From positions 84,198,001 through 84,262,000 of the forward strand of contig NC_086108.1 in assembly GCF_963921235.1 (NCBI RefSeq): a stretch of DNA of 64,000 nt, given 5' to 3'. The notes under the pieces were generated by a model. That model was not told where the DNA came from. It did not search any database and saw only the letters and a program-made list of their open reading frames with translations. The stretch's first letter is position 1. Each line of letters begins with the position of its first letter. The position numbers and the translations under genes are program-made. Below, piece by piece: positions 2,124 to 52,622 of the stretch. This DNA is from Mobula hypostoma. Its lineage: Eukaryota.

Positions 2124-2680
2124 TAATTCCACATCCCATTCCCATTCTGATATGTCTATCCACGGCTTCCTCTACTGTAAAGATGAAGCCACACTCACGC
2201 TGGAGGAAAAACACCTTGTATTCCGTCTGGGTAGCCTCCAACCTGATGGCATGAACATTGACTTCTCTTAACTTCCGCTAATGCCTCACCTCCCCCTCGT
2301 ACCCCATCCGTTAGTTATTTATATACACACATTCTTTCTCTCTCTCTCCTTTTTCTCCCTCTGTCCCTCTGACTATACCCCTTGCCCATCCTCTGGGTTT
2401 TCCCCCCTCCCTCTTTTCCTTCTTCCTGTCTCATGATCCTCTCATATCCCTTTTGCCAATCACTTGTCCAGCTCTTGGCTCCATCCCTCCCCCTCCTGTC
2501 TTCTCCTAGCATTTCAGATCTCCCCCTCCCCCTCCCCCTCCCACTTTCAAATCTCTTACTAGCTCTTCCTTCAGTTAGTCCTGACAAAGGCTCTCGGCCC
2601 AAAACGTCGACTGTACCTCTTCCTAGAGATGCTGCCTGGCCTGCTGCGTTCACCAGCAACTTTGATGTGTGTTGCTTGAA
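2124..2680 (+). mobile_element. Penelope-like element 3' end with decayed hammerhead motif
   Basis: C-terminal peptide HSHSDMSIHG...EEKHLVFRLGSLQPDGMNIDFS, pyrimidine-rich UTR, and the conserved tail. The motif at 2577-2612 reads CTGACAA...AAAACGTC. Confidence 0.85.
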
Positions 2681-4095: not shown

Positions 4096-6054
4096 AAGTC
4101 CTACATTGATGAAGCTCCCTCCCAATCTTCGCAAGCGAAGAACCAGTCATCAACAGTTACATCACTTGTGCTTCTGAAGTTAAACAAGGTGAAAAAATTA
4201 GACTTGTAATCAACGCTTCTGGTTTTATATACTTCATATAACAAGGATCATTAACTTCTGCCTCCATAATATTGTTTATCTCAATCTATCTACACCTGAA
4301 ACATTCATTGTGCTATTATACAGACCCCAATATTTGTCCAAGATTCTATGTTCTGTTCCATTCTTTATAAAATATGGTTGATTCACTGCTCATATTGTAT
4401 TTCTTCACTGATGCCTCTGAGCTGTATTGGGTTTTGAATTTCTCCACCACCTTCCCCACCCCCCACCAAAGATGATGCCTGAGGGGCATTAGAGAGAGAA
4501 AGTGACCCAAATTTATTAGCACCAGGGTACACAGCTCAGTTTTGCATCAGTAATACATTCATTTGATTTATTGTGTTAAGGTGCAAAGGAACTTAAAGTA
4601 AACTGAGATTTTCAGACCCCCAAGGCTCATTCAAGTGTCACATCAGGCCCTAAATAATTTATGACGTGCTTTAATTGTAGAAATGATGAGAGAAAGTCTT
4701 GACTTTTTCTATCAGCTATTGAAGCTGGAAGGTAGCATTTCTGATGCTGGATTAACACATTAAAGTCCATTCTTCTTTTCAAGAAGGTAATTCAGTAGAA
4801 CTACAGAGGGGTAGATGTATGTTACTTTGTTTGATATGGGCTTTAAAATTAAATGTTAATTCTGTTTCTCTTTCCACAGATAATGCCTGGCGTTTCTATC
4901 ATTTTCTGTCTTTATTTCAATCAACAAATTATGCAACTGTAATAATTTTAGACTTGACCCGCAACACTGACCTGAATAATTTTATGGTAAAGTGAACATA
5001 ACTAAAAATAATAAAAGCAGCAAATTTAAGATTTCATAAGGCTGGAATTTTTTTCTGGACTCTCCTCAGTAAATCACCTAATTTTTCTCTATTTCCTTTC
5101 TGAATTGCGAAAAATATGGTTTCATATCATTAACTATCTTCCAGAATCAGATCTGCACAGCTATTATGTAAGTATTAGCAATGAGTATTAGTACACTTCT
5201 AGATTGCAGTAGGCATTGCAGAATTCCCCAGGTCAAGAATGACCCAATTTATGAGAATCCGATTATGCTAATTTTCTCACACATTTTTAAAGCACTTTTC
5301 AAGCTACTAATAATATACTTCATGGGATTCATAAACGACTGGATGCAGTATATATTTTATTAGTTTACTTCTGAGTTGACAGTGATTATTCAATGAAATG
5401 CAAATATAACAAATATATGTAGATCAATATGATAGAGATTACTATAGAAATCAGATATTTCTTACCTATGTTGAAATCATCTTATGAACCGATCTCAGGA
5501 ACAGGCCATTTGTAACCCAGGAACTGCTTGTACAATTAAAACAGTCCATTTTCCTCACTTTCCTATAGTGCACTCCCTCGTTAATACAAACATTATCATC
5601 GAACTTTACTATTCCAATGGATCAAACCTGGGATCTTTTTCTCCTCCATATCTCAGTTGAATTACCATCTTAAAATGAAGAATGAATTTTAACATATTAA
5701 TCAAGAAACGAAATGTTAATTTCCAGTTTCAATTGGTGGCAGAAAAAGTTAAGACTTTTACTTAGCATTTCTACAATTAAACTGCATGATAAATTATTAG
5801 CTGAGGCCTGATTTGACACTTGAATGACCCACCTGGGGGACTGAAAATCTCATTTTACTTTGAGCTCCTTGGCATGTTAACACAATAGATCTGTTTCAGT
5901 GAGACCTGAAGCACTTCTGGTTTAAGATATTGCGGGTGAAGCACAGCGATGACCTGCTGGCAGCAAACACAACTATTAACTACCTTACACGAGGAAATCT
6001 GCAGATGCTGGAATTTCAAGCAACACACATAAAAGTTGCTGGTGAACACAGCAG

Positions 6055-6090
6055 AGTCCTGACGAAGGGTCTCGGCCCGAAACGTCGACT
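6055..6090 (+). ncRNA. Minimal type I hammerhead ribozyme motif, intact core
   Basis: Helix I AGTC/GACT; core CTGACGA plus an extra A; helix II GGGT-CTCG-GCCC; GAAA; CG palindrome in place of helix III; predicted GUC cleavage after 6086. This matches the hammerheads described for Penelope-like elements. Confidence 0.8.
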
Positions 6091-6092
6091 GC

Positions 6093-6128
6093 AGTCCTGA
6101 CAAAGGGTCTCAGCCCGAAACGTCGACT
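6093..6128 (+). ncRNA. Second tandem hammerhead motif (core G8 to A)
   Basis: AGTC-CTGACAA-AGGGTCTCAGCCC-GAAA-CGTC-GACT, starting 38 nt after the start of the first copy. Confidence 0.7.
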
Positions 6129-6299
6129 TACCTCTTCCTAGAGATGCTGCCTGGCCTGCTGCGTTCACCAGCAACTTTTAGGTGTGTTGCTATTAACTAT
6201 CTTATTACTCACACTTTTTCTCAAAAAAGATCAATAGTGTGTAACTTCCCTTTTAGAGCTGAGCTTCTGAACCGCCTGCTTGACTTGGCATTTTTATAG

Positions 6300-6961
6300 T
6301 GTGAACTGAAGTCTCAAAGGTGCAGAATGGTTGCGGTGTGGCATACACAGGCTGAGTTGAGGTGGCAGGACCCAGGCCTGGGCCCTAGAGCAGGGAACGA
6401 GCCAATGTTTGGCTGCTGGAGTGGACGAGGGAAGTATTTCTGAGGTGAAGCAGAGTTGAGGTGGCGGGACCCGGGTCTGAGAGTGAGGAAGCTAATATCT
6501 GACCAATTCAAGTGCCAGGCCAAATTGGAAATGTTGGGTACGGGCCAATTCAAGCCAGCAGAGCCTAGACCTGACAGTGTATCGAATCAGCAGGGCTCAG
6601 GACTTAAGAGGGAGAAATGGCCCGAGGTTTGGCCAGTTTAAGTTCCGGGCTAGTTTGAAAAGGTCACAGTGACGGGGCTGGAGACAAGGTGTTCAGCTCG
6701 TGGCTTGAAGCGGTTTACTCATCCCTGCATTGAACTGAGGCTGTGGCCTGCAACTATCAGGCTCCCGGATCAGCTGTAGTGTGACTGGCTTGCGGCTGTG
6801 GCCCAACTTTCATGAACCTCACTTACTTATGTTATTTGTTTATTTTTATTGTTTGCACTTTTTGTTTTTTCCCTGCACATTGGATCCTTAACAGTCTTCT
6901 TTTTTAATAGGTTCTATTGGGTTTCTTTGTTATTTGTTTCTTAGTATGCACTTTGAACTTA
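6300..6961 (+). mobile_element. Non-coding LINE-like element with TTGAAC tail
   Basis: GC-rich, internally repetitive body and T-rich 3' part ending ctttgaactt, like 20327-21248 and 33958-34792. Confidence 0.4.
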
Positions 6962-10381: not shown

Positions 10382-12365
10382 TGAGATTGCAGAGTTCAGA
10401 ACCACAAGAAGAGAAGACACCACAATCATTGCTATCTACTTTTGAACTCGTTTTAGACCATTTTAGACCTCACCAGTGGTGGAATCTGGATTGAAAGGTT
10501 CAAACAGGGATTTTTGAGTGAACTAAATCTGAGTAGGAACTGATTCAAGGCTGGCAGAGGGGAGGTTGAGATTTGGGAATAACAGCTGAGGCTTACTAGA
10601 AAGATACAGATGAAGCTGAGGACTGGTCTCGCCATCTTGCAGCCAAGAATTTCCAAATGTGCCTCACGTTTGTTGTAAGACAGATAGATGGAGTAGAGGA
10701 GACAGACAAAGAAATAAAGAATACAATATTAATTGGTTCCTTTGCATTTGTAATTTTATAAGATCTATACCTCTTAACAAAAAACTTCACTATCTAATTC
10801 TGCTTGGGCACTGTGTGCTGAACCTCATTTTACAGTTTAAGCAAGAATAGATTTTGACAACAAACATCATTATGATACTGCCATTATTTTTCTGTTTCAA
10901 AGCTATTCGTGATACAATATAAGTTTATTTTGACTGATATTTATCAAGAAGCAACTTCAAGATAGACTGCCTTGACTGCCTTTGTGCTTCCTCCGCATTT
11001 TCCCCCCCATCAAAAAAAGGATTTTATAATTTTATCCACCTCCCCTTTTTGCTAAATAGGCCCGCATAACGATATGTAACCTCACAAAACCTACTTATCT
11101 GATAAGCTAACAGTCATAAAAGATTATAATAATGCAGTGCTGTTTGCACAATTGAGTTGCATTTTAGACATACTTGCTTCAAATGCACTGCAGATTCCTC
11201 ACTGTTTCTGACCCCTGAAACAGTAGGGTATTAGATTCTGTCAACGGATCCACTCAAGATTTAACTGTTTGTCTTCACTTAGACATAAAGAAAACATGAC
11301 AAAAACAGCTGAAAGGTAGTCATCAAATGCTCAGCTCTTTACATTCCACAATCATGGAAGGAATCAATTATGAAAAATTATTTTATATTGTTTGCACCTT
11401 TTGAACTGGAAAGAAAAGCAATGATTATGAAGAAAACTAAGAGTAAATAAAACCAATGGCTGCCAGCATTCATGAAAGCAAATAAATGACATAATGGAAG
11501 TAATTTTAACCTATTCCATCAGTCAGGAAAGTATACCAGATCAAGTGGAAAAATTCACTTAATTTTATTTTTCACTGACATCAACAAATGGGCAAGATAT
11601 ATAGTAAAGCTACACTTGACTCTGCTATTTTCCAATTGAGACCTAATGTTGAAATTCCCCCAGGAAAAGTGAATTGCCTTACGAACCTAAGCACTGAAGT
11701 GTAATGCATATTTTGCACTGGGTGTTATAGTCATAGGGAAATACAGGTAATAAGTCAAAAGAAAATGACTTAATGGTTAGTAGAAAGCTATTGAATCCAG
11801 CAACACTTTAGGTGACACCAGAAAATGAACCTTAATGTAGATGCATTGTTTTTACCAAATTGCTTGAGAAATGAATTCCAAGGAATGAAACAACCTGGCC
11901 TAGAGGTGTAACTATCTCTACCCAAGACGTTTGGACATAAGCATCCATAACCAAGTGCAAGCAGCAATCTTTCCTGGTACTCCTCACATGAACTGAAAAG
12001 CTTGTGTGACATCGGCAAGCATAACTCATAACCACAAATGTATGACAAGTTAGAGGGTTCTCCATATGCAGCTGAAACATCTAGGCAATGACCTGGACCC
12101 TGAGCTCTTATTTTGGTGAGGACTTAGTAGATAATCTTGATCATAGTATTCATCTGTAATATTTCTGCATCCAGATGCTTCGCAAACTAAGTTTCCAGAT
12201 AAAAATTACATTTGCTACAAGGGGAACAACCTAAATCAGAACTGACTTTGCCTTTCAAAATATACCAGTTTTGCGTTTTAGTTAGCACTACTGCAGTTTC
12301 TGTTGTAACCTTTTGTGGTAGCATGTTCAGGGCACTTAAGGTAATCAAGATGATCATACATCTCC

Positions 12366-12435
12366 CCTTCTCAAATCAACTAGAAAGGGGCAATAAATGG
12401 CCTTCTCAAATCAACTAGAAAGGGGCAATAAATGG
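12366..12435 (+). repeat. Perfect 35-bp tandem duplication
   Basis: ccttctcaaatcaactagaaaggggcaataaatgg occurs twice, within an old LINE/SINE tail. Confidence 0.9.
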
Positions 12436-12464
12436 CATGCCAGTATTGATCACATTATCAGAAC

Positions 12465-32542: not shown

Positions 32543-32775
32543 ACAAGAGAAGATCTGCAGATGCTGGAAATCCAAACAACACATACAAAATGCTGGAGGA
32601 ACCCAGGAGACAGACAGAAAGATCTAAACTTTTTCAGGGTAGGCACGCCTGTAAGAGACTTTACAGTATAGTAGTCCAATCATAAACAAGGGAAAATCTG
32701 CAGATGATGAAATCCAAGCAATACACACAGCAGCTTGGCCTGCTGATTTCCTCCAGCATTTTGTGTGTGTTGCAG
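32543..32775. mobile_element. Penelope-tail fragments in inverted arrangement
   Basis: Two tctgcagatg...caacac tail starts and an inverted ctccagcattttgtgtgtgttgc. Confidence 0.6.
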
Positions 32776-32867: not shown

Positions 32868-33893
32868 AAACAACCTTGCACTCAACATCAGCAAGACCAA
32901 GGAAATAATTGTGGACTTCAGAAAAGGCAAGTCAGGAGAGTACACATCAGTCCCCATTAAGTACATAAAGTCCTTTCCAGTGGTGGAAAGGTTTAGCAGC
33001 TTCAGGTACCTGGGTGTCAACATCTCAGAGGACCTATCCTGGCCCAACACCTTGATGCAATAATAAGGGCACAACAGTGGCTCTGCTTCATTTGGAGTTT
33101 GAGAAGATTGGTACGTCACGAAAGACTTTTACAAGTTCCTATAGATGTATGGTAGACAGCATTCTGACCAGGTATGGAGGCTGTAAGGCAGAGATGCACC
33201 AGAAGAAGCAGAGGGTTATATAGTCCAAGGAACACACATAAAAGTTGCTGGTGAACGCAGCAGGTAAGGCAGCATCTCTAGGAAGAGGTACAGTCGACGC
33301 TTCAGGCTGAGACCCTCCGTCAGGACTAACTGAAAGAAGAGCTAGTAAGAGATTTGAAAGTGGGAGTGGGAGGGATGGATCCAAGAGCTGGACAGGTGAT
33401 TGGCAAAAGGGATATGAGAGGGATATGAGAGGATCATGGGACAGGAGGCCCAGGGAGAAAGATAAGGGGGGGGGGAACCCAGAGGATGGGCAAGGGGTAT
33501 AGTGGGAGGAACAGAGGGAGAAAAGGGAGAGAGAGAAAAAGAATGTGTGTATATAAATAAATAACGGATGGGCTACGAGGGGGAGGTGGGGCATTAGCAG
33601 AAGTTAGAGAAGTCAATGTTCATGCCATCAGGTTGGAGGCCACCCAGACGGAATATAAGACGTTCAACTTTTATGTGTGTTGCTTGAAATTCCAGCATCT
33701 GCAGATTTCCTTGTGTTTGCGGTTATATAGTCCACCAGCTCCAACACAGCCACAACTCCCCCCACCACTGAGGATACATTCAAGAAGCAGTGCCACAAAG
33801 AACCCTCACCATCTGGACATGCCCACTTCGCATTACTCCCATCACAGAGGAAGTACAACAGCTTGAAGATTCACGCTCTATAATTTAGAAACA
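32868..33893 (+). mobile_element. Rex1/Babar LINE interrupted by a Penelope insertion
   Basis: NNLALNISKTKEIIVDFRK and FRYLGVNISEDLSW motifs. Confidence 0.75.
33228..33720 (-). mobile_element. Penelope-like 3' end with inverted tail and 14-bp TSD
   Basis: TSD ggttatatagtcca at 33214-33227 and 33721-33734. Minus-strand body plus an inverted tail at 33665-33720. Hammerhead variant at 33292-33327. Confidence 0.85.
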
Positions 33894-35822: not shown

Positions 35823-36280
35823 ACCCTTCGTCAGGACTAACTGAAGGAAGAGTTAGTAAGAGATTTGAAAGAGGGAGGGGGAGGGGGAGATAAAAAATGA
35901 CAGGAGAAGACAGGAGGGGGAGGGATAGAGCCAAGAGCTGGACAGGTGATTGGCAAAGGGGATATGAGAGGATCATGGGACAGGAGCTCCGGGGAGAAAG
36001 ACAAGGGGTGGGGGGGAACCCAGAGGATGGGCAAGAGGTATAGTCAGAGGGACAGAGGGAGAAAAAGGAGAGTGAGAGAAAGAATGTGTGTATAAAAATA
36101 AATAACAGATGGGGTACGAGGGGGAGGTGGGGCATTAGCGGAAGTTAGAGAATCAATGTTCATGCCGTCAGGTTGGAGGCTACCCAGACGGAATATAAAG
36201 TGTTGTTCCTCCAATGAGTGTGGTGGTGGGGCATTAGCGAAAGTTTGAGACGTCAACGTTCATGCCATCAGGTTGGAGGT
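35823..36280 (-). mobile_element. Penelope-like 3' fragment with internal duplication
   Basis: LEEQHFIFRLGSLQPDGMNID. The tail is truncated inside the hammerhead (only AGTCCTGACGAAGGGT remains). Confidence 0.8.
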
Positions 36281-40402: not shown

Positions 40403-40872
40403 CAAATCATAAACATGAGGAAGTTTGCAGGTGCTAGAAATTCAAAGCAACACACGCAAAATGCTGGTGGAACTCAGCATGCCAGGCAGCATCTATGAAA
40501 ATTAATAAACAGTCGAAGTTTCTGGCCAAGACCCTTCTTCAGGACTGAAATGTAAGGAGGAAGAGGCCAGAATATAGAGGTTGGGGGAGGGGAAGGAGAA
40601 TTGCTAGAATATGAAAGGTGAAGCCAAGTGGGTGGGAAAGATAAAGGGCTGGAGAAGAAGGAATACGATAGGAGAGGAGAGGGCCCCGTGGGAAGTGATA
40701 GGCAGATGAAAAAAGGTAAAGGGCTGGAATGGGAATCAAATTAGGGGGAAGGGGGAGAGGAAAATAATAATCCTATCAAATTCAGTCTTGGCCCGAAACA
40801 TCAACTGTTTATTCATTTCCACAAATACTGCCTGGTCTGCTGAGTTCCTCCAGCATTTTATGTATGTTGCTA
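40403..40872. mobile_element. Penelope fold-back element with 12-bp TSD
   Basis: TSD tgatcttgaaag at 40391-40402 and 40873-40884. Minus-strand hammerhead at 40511-40546, inverted partial tail at 40785-40870. Confidence 0.8.
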
Positions 40873-41937: not shown

Positions 41938-43012
41938 CCTTCCTCCACCATTGATGCTGCCCCCCACCCACAACACCTCCATTTCCTGGATATCTGTACT
42001 CACCACATCTTCCCGCTACCTTAACAGGGATAGAGTTCCTCTTGTCCTCACCTACCACCCTACAAGCCTTTGCATCCAATACATTATTCTTCGCAACTTC
42101 TGCCATCTTCAACAGCATTCTACCGCCAATCACATTTTAGCGCCCCCCCCTCACTTTCCGCAGGGACTGCTTCCTCCATAATTCCCTTGCCCATTTGTGC
42201 CTCCCCACTAATCTCCCTCCTGGCATATATCCCTGCAGGCAACAGAAATGCTACACTTGTCCATTTACATCCTCCTTTACCTCCATTCAGGGCCTCAAAC
42301 TGTCCTTCCAGGTGAGGCAACACTCCACCTGCAAATCTATTGGGGTCGTCTATTGTATCTGGTGCTCCCGTTGCGGCCTCCTCTACAAGCGAGACCTGAC
42401 CTAGGTTGGGGACCACTTTGTTGGGCACTTCCACTCTATTTGTCAGAAGTGGAATTTCCCAGTAGCCAGTCATTTTAATTCCTATCCCCATTCCCTTTCC
42501 AAAATTTCAGTCTATGGCCTCCTCTTTTGCCACAATGACACCCCTACCAGAGTGGAAAAGCAACAAATATTCCATGTAGGTAGCTTCCAACTTGATGAGA
42601 TGAACATCAATTTCTCCTTTCAGTAAAAAAATTTCCCTCCCCTTTTTCTCCTCTTCTATTCCCCACTCTGGCCTCTTACCTCTTTTCTTCACCTCCTTAT
42701 CCCACTCCCTGGTGGTCTTCCTTCTTCCCTTTCTGCCACGGTCCATTCCCCTGTCCTATCAGATTCGTTCTTCTCCAGCCTTTGACCTTTCCCAATCACC
42801 CGGCTTCACCTATCACCTTATAGCCATCTTCCTCCTCCTTCCCCCACCTTTTTATTCTAGCACCTTCCCCTTTCCTTTCGAGTCCTGCAGAAGGGACTCG
42901 ACCTGAAATGTCGACTGTTTATTCATTTCCATAGATGCTGCCTGACCGACTGAATTTCTCCAGCATTTCGTGTGTGTTGCTCTGAACTTCCAGCAACTGC
43001 AGAATCTCTTGA
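41938..43012 (+). mobile_element. Penelope-like element, GIY-YIG endonuclease region plus tail
   Basis: VPLVLTYHPTS, PCRQQKCYTCP, TCKSIGVVYCIWCSRCGLLY and PVASHFNS motifs, frameshifted. Decayed hammerhead at 42881-42916. Confidence 0.9.
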
Positions 43013-48084: not shown

Positions 48085-48365
48085 TTAAGGACCCGAGTTA
48101 CAGGGAAAGATTGAATGGGTTAGGATTTTATTCTCTAGAATGTATAAGATTGAGAGGAGATTTAATAGAGAAATACAAAATTATGTGGTGTGTAGATAGG
48201 GTAAATGCAAGAAGGCTTTTCCACTGAGGGTGGGTGAGACTACAACTAGAGGTGATTAATGGTTCAGCACAGACTAGGTGGACCATAGGTCTGTTTCTGT
48301 GACTGTATTAATGGTTCAGCACAGACTAGATGGACCATAAGGCCTGTTTCTCTGACTGTATTCTA
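48085..48365 (+). mobile_element. CR1 3' end with ~52-bp tandem duplication (48255-48359)
   Basis: attaatggttcagcacagactag...gactgt occurs twice with small differences. Confidence 0.75.
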
Positions 48366-52525: not shown

Positions 52526-52622
52526 CAACACACACAAAATGCTTGTGGAACACAGTAGGCCAGACAGCATCCATAGGAAGAAGCATAGTTGACGTTTCAG
52601 GCCAAGACCCTTCGTCAGGACT
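52526..52622 (-). mobile_element. ~95-bp Penelope tail (hammerhead plus terminus) with 10-bp TSD, inside a CR1 3' end
   Basis: actagtcact at 52516-52525 and 52620-52629. Minus strand AGTC-CTGACGA-AGGGTCTTGGCCT-GAAA-CGTC-AACT. Confidence 0.8.

Follow-up and report, generated by a model that had tools for sequence, protein, structure and literature searches.

The 64-kb window analysed here (the whole stretch of 64,000 nucleotides) carries at 5973–6204 a short insertion in which two hammerhead ribozyme motifs lie head to tail between inverted arms, bounded by a target-site duplication (TSD). The inserted sequence proper (5988–6191) measures 204 bp, and its parts relate to the pLTR of a Penelope-like element (PLE) as follows.

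5973..5987, no strand: TSD, left copy, 15 bp; its last base is common to the element end; empty site in organism C
5988..6018, minus strand: PLE 'tail' extension of 31 bp, at this end only, matching the tail at 33665–33716
6019..6054, minus strand: left arm, an inverted, 5'-truncated copy of the 3' part of the pLTR (inverted repeat)
6055..6091, plus strand: hammerhead unit A, minimal type I; both core segments and 5/5 CpG intact
after 6086, plus strand: predicted cleavage site of unit A, from the motif
6092, plus strand: junction base between the units; T in the closest copies, a C variant in the family (c44067)
6093..6128, plus strand: hammerhead unit B; G8A at 6102, loop II change at 6112
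after 6124, plus strand: predicted cleavage site of unit B, from the motif
after 6128, plus strand: deletion in unit B, one base lost; a G is inserted there in 60% of the depth of sequencing run X1
6129..6155, plus strand: pLTR sequence downstream of the hammerhead, from identity to other copies
6156..6191, plus strand: right arm, 3' part of the pLTR; ends where other copies end
6190..6204, no strand: TSD, right copy; 2 bases common to the element end

The original prediction had described a protein-free element of two head-to-tail units with a 38-nt period, enclosed by 35-bp inverted arms with two mismatches and flanked by a 15-bp TSD with one, and this layout is confirmed. The direct repeat 6055–6090/6093–6128 is identical at 34 of 36 positions with a period of 38, in agreement with TRF; the two differences between the units (6064 G/6102 A and 6074 G/6112 A) are both CpG to CpA changes, and the first is the G8 to A substitution already noted in the second unit. 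The arms prove to be one base longer than first described (6019–6054/6156–6191, 36 nt, 94% identical, with mismatches at 6029/6181 and 6048/6162), and the flanking repeat 5973–5987/6190–6204 matches at 14 of 15 positions (5983 C/6200 T). No ORF of at least 150 aa overlaps the 204 bp, so the intact RT–EN ORF of an autonomous PLE is absent from them. As RNA, 5988–6191 has a z score of −7.1 against shuffles, none of 200 shuffles folding equally well, and the dimer junction pattern has a single match in the window with up to three mismatches allowed (0.00 expected).

Absent from the earlier description was the 31-bp tail at 5988–6018, which is part of an inverted segment: read as the reverse complement, the left 67 nt (5988–6054) correspond to the 3' end of the pLTR together with the 31-bp extension, and 5987–6038 is identical at 51 of 52 positions to the inverted tail of another copy at 33665–33716. 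On the other side, unit B continues into ordinary pLTR sequence with no third unit, and 6093–6191 is 91–94% identical to copies at 2577, 33327 and 37278 (6094–6185 for the last). MITEs and other DNA transposons carry inverted repeats at both termini; this candidate was rejected, as 31 bp separate the left arm from the left end and the two arms consist of pLTR sequence.

The insertion sits inside another, less abundant repeat (about 5915–5987 and 6209–6440; summed depth 10^2–10^4), and three related 30-nt units lie at 6351–6573 in the flanking repeat region. At about 5467–5668 on the minus strand there is a possible non-coding exon, with good acceptor and donor bounds and stops in all three frames; if it is real, the hammerheads lie antisense within an intron. 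In the host-gene search 75 exon candidates were judged by eye only, and Pfam, run on 20 of the 567 open frames of the window, gave only DDE, RT and a weak KH match. Two-copy tandem duplications are also present at 12366–12436 (35 bp, 100%) and 48255–48362 (52 bp, 92%).

The Penelope-like family around the insertion

BLAST with the insertion and with a longer copy finds 14 other copies of the hammerhead region in the window, among which the following serve for comparison.

33214..33734, minus strand: exact 14-bp TSD, inverted arm and tail, same 3' end, one hammerhead
2125..2680, plus strand: pLTR and hammerhead directly behind the C-terminus of a GIY-YIG-like ORF
22010 (minus), 37278 (plus), 45058 (minus) and 52622 (minus): 5' ends of short copies at the helix I edge, as also at 6055 and 6093

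The copy at 33214–33734 retains an endonuclease C-terminal remnant; it also holds an internal 11-bp duplication at 33408–33432. In the copies at 2577 and 33327 (94% and 91% identical) the pLTR stands behind an ORF C-terminus, and tblastn places the ORF end near 36200 as well. The ORF C-terminus has an ESM Atlas feature score of 0.91 to SegE GIY-YIG clusters, which is a lead only, and Pfam assigned no family to this ORF end. At 52622 and 37277 there are stubs some 100 bp long, with TSDs of 10 and 13 bp.

Inspection of the ribozyme core covered 15 other anchors, one of them a more distant relative at 1811; both core segments are kept in two of the 15, several of the rest being truncated, and a change of the G8A type is seen in c2577 and c45058 too. 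Among nine other short copies, four have their 5' ends within 3 nt of the 5' edge of helix I (P 0.002 or 0.015, depending on the range of the uniform null, and post hoc). These ends were read by hand, leaving out five long copies and two inverted-only pieces, and they gather at the edge of helix I instead of at the cleavage site, which offers a lead towards either a stop of the reverse transcriptase or a defined short RNA.

Further pieces of the family show other arrangements. At 32543–32775 there are two pLTR tail pieces without a hammerhead, the second being a short head-to-head hairpin stub, and at 40440–40871 two pLTR copies stand head to head, a long one on the minus strand and a short one on the plus strand. 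A decayed PLE ORF with a CxxC motif (42118–42620, plus strand) lies upstream of a second pLTR subfamily (copy at 42880) and presumably hints at the Neptune clade. CxxC is a linker motif in PLEs according to the available part of PMC8557442.

The features that had suggested an independent hairpin element are those of a truncated PLE. Inverted truncated copies are given as typical of PLE insertions in parts of PMC8557442 and PMC3846280, and a one-sided tail of 30–40 bp is described in parts of PMC8557442 and PMC11167929. Here an inverted, 5'-truncated copy occupies the 5' end (5988–6054), the tail is one-sided and 31 bp long (5988–6018), the TSD measures 15 bp, and the pLTR follows what appears from sequence to be an endonuclease ORF in the copies at 2577 and 33327. 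Because arms, tail and TSD are generic for truncated PLE insertions, the hairpin with its TSD is to be read as an insertion product and not as evidence for a separate element. The distinct retrozyme-like parasite that had been proposed therefore finds little room: the same arms, tail and TSD recur around a single hammerhead at 33214–33734, and a tandem is present in none of the 14 other copies by BLAST, pattern search or TRF.

The empty site and the decay of the insertion

Contigs of four sequencing runs (X1, X5, X9 and X10), among 24 listed, were compared with the window; they come from three organisms, and the PLE family is abundant in all four. The runs listed include none recorded as RNA, X9 being at most a candidate, and contigs reveal neither the strand nor the ends of a transcript. 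In run X10 (organism C), whose flank is about 8% diverged from the window, a 787-nt contig (record 9) covers 5621–5987 and 6215–6315 with 11 letters between them, where the window has 10 letters between 6204 and 6215. This contig has one TSD copy and no insertion; the TSD is thus real, and the original prediction was right that the insertion had been mobilised. In organism B (X5) contigs stop at 5964 and restart at 6204, which fits an empty site or breaks at the flanking repeat. Record 31 of X9, a second sample of organism A, spans 6151–6450 with no differences and carries the right junction. Contigs with loose ends before 5987 number 451, 568, 69 and 150 in X1, X5, X9 and X10, respectively, and summed depth is about 10^6 over the element against about 5 on the left flank, a ratio that is not a copy number. 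A pile-up of loose ends at 6055 was dropped as evidence, since the query switches orientation at that position.

The runs also bear on whether the duplication could be an assembly error or a private allele, which is highly improbable. Among the contigs listed for the four runs none spans 6091/6092, a gap that proves nothing, and the best runs hold 0.82–0.89 of the words; yet both outer junctions are present in organism A reads, and the two CpG-type transitions between the units are not of a kind made by an assembly slip.

Since its arrival the insertion has lost three of 13 CpG, a base after 6128 has been deleted, and bases at 6181 and in the TSD have changed. The element is decayed, mostly at CpG, and without sign of having spread. 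Divergence is similar between the units (2/36), the arms (2/36) and the TSD copies (1/15), which dates the duplication to about the time of insertion. That unit A has kept all five of its CpG has no statistical significance when judged within the insertion (P 0.20).

Fold and predicted cleavage of the tandem

Each unit comprises a 4-bp helix I, the core, one extra A, a 4-bp helix II and a loop-less palindromic helix III. The extra base after position 9, the G10.1–C11.1 pair and the palindromic 15.2–16.2 that are among the features given in the available part of PMC4209133 are present, and the motif agrees with the published descriptor of the minimal hammerheads (min-HHRs) of PLEs, in line with the minimal type I hammerheads first proposed. 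An Rfam search of the whole window (E ≤ 1) returned no hammerhead, its single match being to SNORA50, an H/ACA snoRNA model that aligns over its full length but weakly at 11072–11193 on the minus strand (38.7 bits, gathering threshold 90, E 0.003), so the hammerhead call rests on the motif read against the published descriptor. The min-HHR core is complete in unit A and is broken in unit B by G8A.

It had been cautioned that the short spacer may prevent the two units from dimerising in cis, but secondary structure allows it: a double hammerhead can be drawn in which each core would act on its partner's site. The outer stem would close helix I for the intact core A, which would direct the cut after 6124, and core B, with its G8A, would serve 6086, where the junction palindrome is predicted to form a 3-bp helix I with a tetraloop. 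The suggestion that cutting at both 6086 and 6124 would release a 38-nt unit fares worse. Single mutants at C3 and G8 (C3G, G8C) abolish PLE hammerhead cleavage in the data available from PMC11167929, and the natural A8 variant in the part of PMC4209133 consulted is accompanied by U3; as cutting at 6086 in the cis dimer would require core B, which is mutated, the 38-nt unit would not be released in cis.

Modelled energies give the tandem no particular help. The ground ensemble is a rod, above which the fold competent for cutting at 6124 lies 7.7 kcal/mol and the full double hammerhead 12.2 kcal/mol; with unit B set equal to unit A these gaps become 13.7 and 17.5 kcal/mol, the active fold being even less favoured. 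For the family, the intermolecular dimer lies 9.1 kcal/mol above two monomer hairpins and 17.4 kcal/mol above the best two-strand fold. This shows that the tandem has no predicted folding advantage in cis, in a model without tertiary contacts under which cutting is still possible. Folding was rejected as decisive evidence against activity, because the family's own dimer has a similar penalty.

Published min-HHR dimers cut weakly (PMC4209133, in part), cleavage by the Anolis PLE hammerhead needs protein (PMC11167929, in part), and one of nine Xenopus dimers tested by Li, Clavereau and Pollet was cleaved (10.64898/2026.07.22.740005, in part). If the plus strand is transcribed, we would infer at most one cut in cis, at 6124, weak and probably dependent on protein. 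The locus is in this respect a natural test piece, as its 76-nt RNA is predicted to cut, if at all, only at the second site.

Origin of the duplication and comparison with known elements

Within the PLE stub, only the duplication stands out. A random duplication would fall in exact register with the ribozyme with a probability of about 3e-4 (estimated with four other duplications of 25–55 bp among 20 TRF rows), and such a register is unlikely enough by chance to suggest that the duplication was structure-guided. What the junction links is precisely the pair of helix I strands, which in an intermolecular double hammerhead belong to two different RNAs. The base at 6092 could be untemplated, a variant of the family or the result of a later change. 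Abutting 38-nt min-HHR tandems were not found described in the literature searched, although the supplements of the preprint by Li et al. and of PMC4209133 may list some. The junction pattern has no match in metagenome, viral and prokaryote collections, where the monomer controls also gave none, so that this result is uninformative.

Our preferred account, which we hold to be probable, is a dead, heavily 5'-truncated insertion of an abundant endonuclease-bearing PLE, in which a template jump guided by the RNA structure took place at the hammerhead base. A one-off template switch, the case that the original prediction had itself set down as refuting it, is thus the likeliest origin of the pair. 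The PLE protein would have cut the two strands of an AT-rich target at positions about 15 bp from each other, leaving the TSD that is seen; in vitro, nicking of both strands of AT-rich DNA is described for the PLE protein of Anolis, which initiates at two RNA sites bounding the tail (PMC11167929, in part). Priming at both 3' start points of the family, which lie some 31 nt from each other, would have given two cDNAs, and by the mechanism suggested by that work this pair would yield the structure observed, in which the inverted 67-nt segment with its tail forms the left side and the forward segment the right. Where other copies of the family repeatedly end, at the 5' edge of the hammerhead hairpin, the forward cDNA would have halted; it may then have re-engaged, on the same RNA or a second one, at the 3' edge of a hammerhead held adjacent by helix I, so that the motif was copied again. 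It would have stopped once more at the 5' edge of the hairpin before being joined to the other cDNA, the insertion then decaying chiefly at CpG.

This account is supported by the single-hammerhead copy of the same anatomy at 33214–33734 and the TSD-flanked stubs at 52622 and 37277, by the joining of the pLTR to an endonuclease-like ORF end in three copies, by the empty site in organism C and the lack of a tandem in the 14 other copies, by the CpG to CpA nature of both unit changes with similar divergence of units, arms and TSD, and by the still less favoured active fold when unit B equals unit A (17.5 kcal/mol). For the template jump speaks the start of both units, like that of four of nine other short copies, at the helix I edge. 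The joining of an inverted arm onto that edge (joint 6018→6055) also occurs at other loci in X1, X5 and X10; in record 2 of X1 such an arm-to-hammerhead junction, at another locus, covers 5998–6087 with 8 differences and ends before the dimer junction. Against the preferred account it may be said that 14 copies in one window are compatible with a rare subfamily, that the duplication is in exact ribozyme register, and that unit A keeps 5/5 CpG where four relatives have lost 10 of 20 (P 0.03, if the relatives are no older).

The same PLE stub could instead have gained its second unit after insertion, at the DNA level, through slipped replication or repair across the hairpin base of the hammerhead. 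The window has two-copy duplications of 26–52 bp at four other places (TRF), there is the 11-bp one inside the 33-kb PLE copy, and the base of the monomer hairpin (−12.6 kcal/mol as RNA) joins exactly the ends of the duplication. We nevertheless regard this as rather unlikely, since divergence is similar for the units, the arms and the TSD, plain copying requires an extra change at 6092 or after 6128, and the duplication starts where the 5' ends of further insertions recur.

A non-autonomous, retrozyme-like element that brings its own dimer partner, its hairpin RNA mobilised by the PLE protein and perhaps releasing a 38-nt unit, is decidedly improbable. It would account for the exact register, for a double hammerhead that can be drawn in cis with an intact core A predicted to cut 6124, and for the junction of X1 record 2, which is similar as far as it goes; retrozymes have, moreover, been proposed to derive from pLTRs (Li et al. 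2026, 10.64898/2026.07.22.740005, in part). Set against it are the 14 other copies without a tandem and the contig joints, of which 15 of 396 are listed: none goes back, and 13 are monomer-type skips of 37–50 nt (the joint 6092→6130 is among those listed). The one-sided tail is expected of an insertion product, core B carries G8A, and the 38-nt period falls below the unit lengths given in the available parts of Li et al. (51–972 bp) and PMC7229834 (150–450 bp). The active fold, at 7.7–12.2 kcal/mol above the ground ensemble, is predicted to be no better than the intermolecular dimer (9.1), and eight of the nine Xenopus dimers of the same preprint showed no cleavage.

A wider possibility, also decidedly unlikely, is that the junction is a recurrent footprint of PLE reverse transcriptase switching templates across a min-HHR dimer, or the seed of 38-nt retrozymes. 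In that case independent junctions would turn up elsewhere in the genome, with TSDs and arm lengths that differ from one to the next, and part of them would have given rise to arrays with a 38-nt period or to a dimer family that supplies its own partner: retrozymes born from a pLTR, and ribozyme-only ones smaller than those reported in the available parts of PMC7229834 and 10.64898/2026.07.22.740005. Recurrence of the junction would be genomic evidence both for dimerisation of PLE min-HHRs during reverse transcription and for a route from pLTR to retrozyme; hammerhead cleavage itself is dispensable for PLE insertion in vitro (PMC11167929, in part). As it stands, the locus is one decayed stub in a family of a described kind, and matters little.

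Compared with the truncated, 5'-inverted PLEs in the parts of PMC3846280, PMC8557442 and PMC11167929 available, the insertion shares the inverted 5' copy, one-sided tail, TSD and AT-rich target, but it is extremely short (204 bp), has its hammerhead duplicated internally and has a TSD of 15 bp, against 8–10 bp in the rotifer examples. With the PLE min-HHRs of PMC4209133, as far as that source was available, it has in common the core, the extra base before helix II, the G–C first pair of helix II, the palindromic helix III and the short helix I, as well as a pLTR location behind an endonuclease-like ORF end and a family in which most copies are single and truncated. Helix II has 4 bp here and 7–8 bp in the Schistosoma motifs, and the tandems described there lie about 3 kb apart, or 100–700 bp apart on opposite strands, whereas the present units abut on one strand with a 38-nt period.

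Non-LTR retrozymes, in the available parts of PMC7229834 and 10.64898/2026.07.22.740005, are likewise non-coding, carry head-to-tail type I hammerheads and are pLTR-derived. Here, in contrast, the unit is of 38 nt, outside both the 150–450 bp and the 51–972 bp ranges, and the motif is minimal instead of canonical and embedded in a pLTR stub; of the two complete cores of a retrozyme, which would have been present at birth, one remains, unit B having G8A. By this analogy the locus resembles the first step from pLTR to retrozyme as proposed by Li et al. 2026 (10.64898/2026.07.22.740005, in part).
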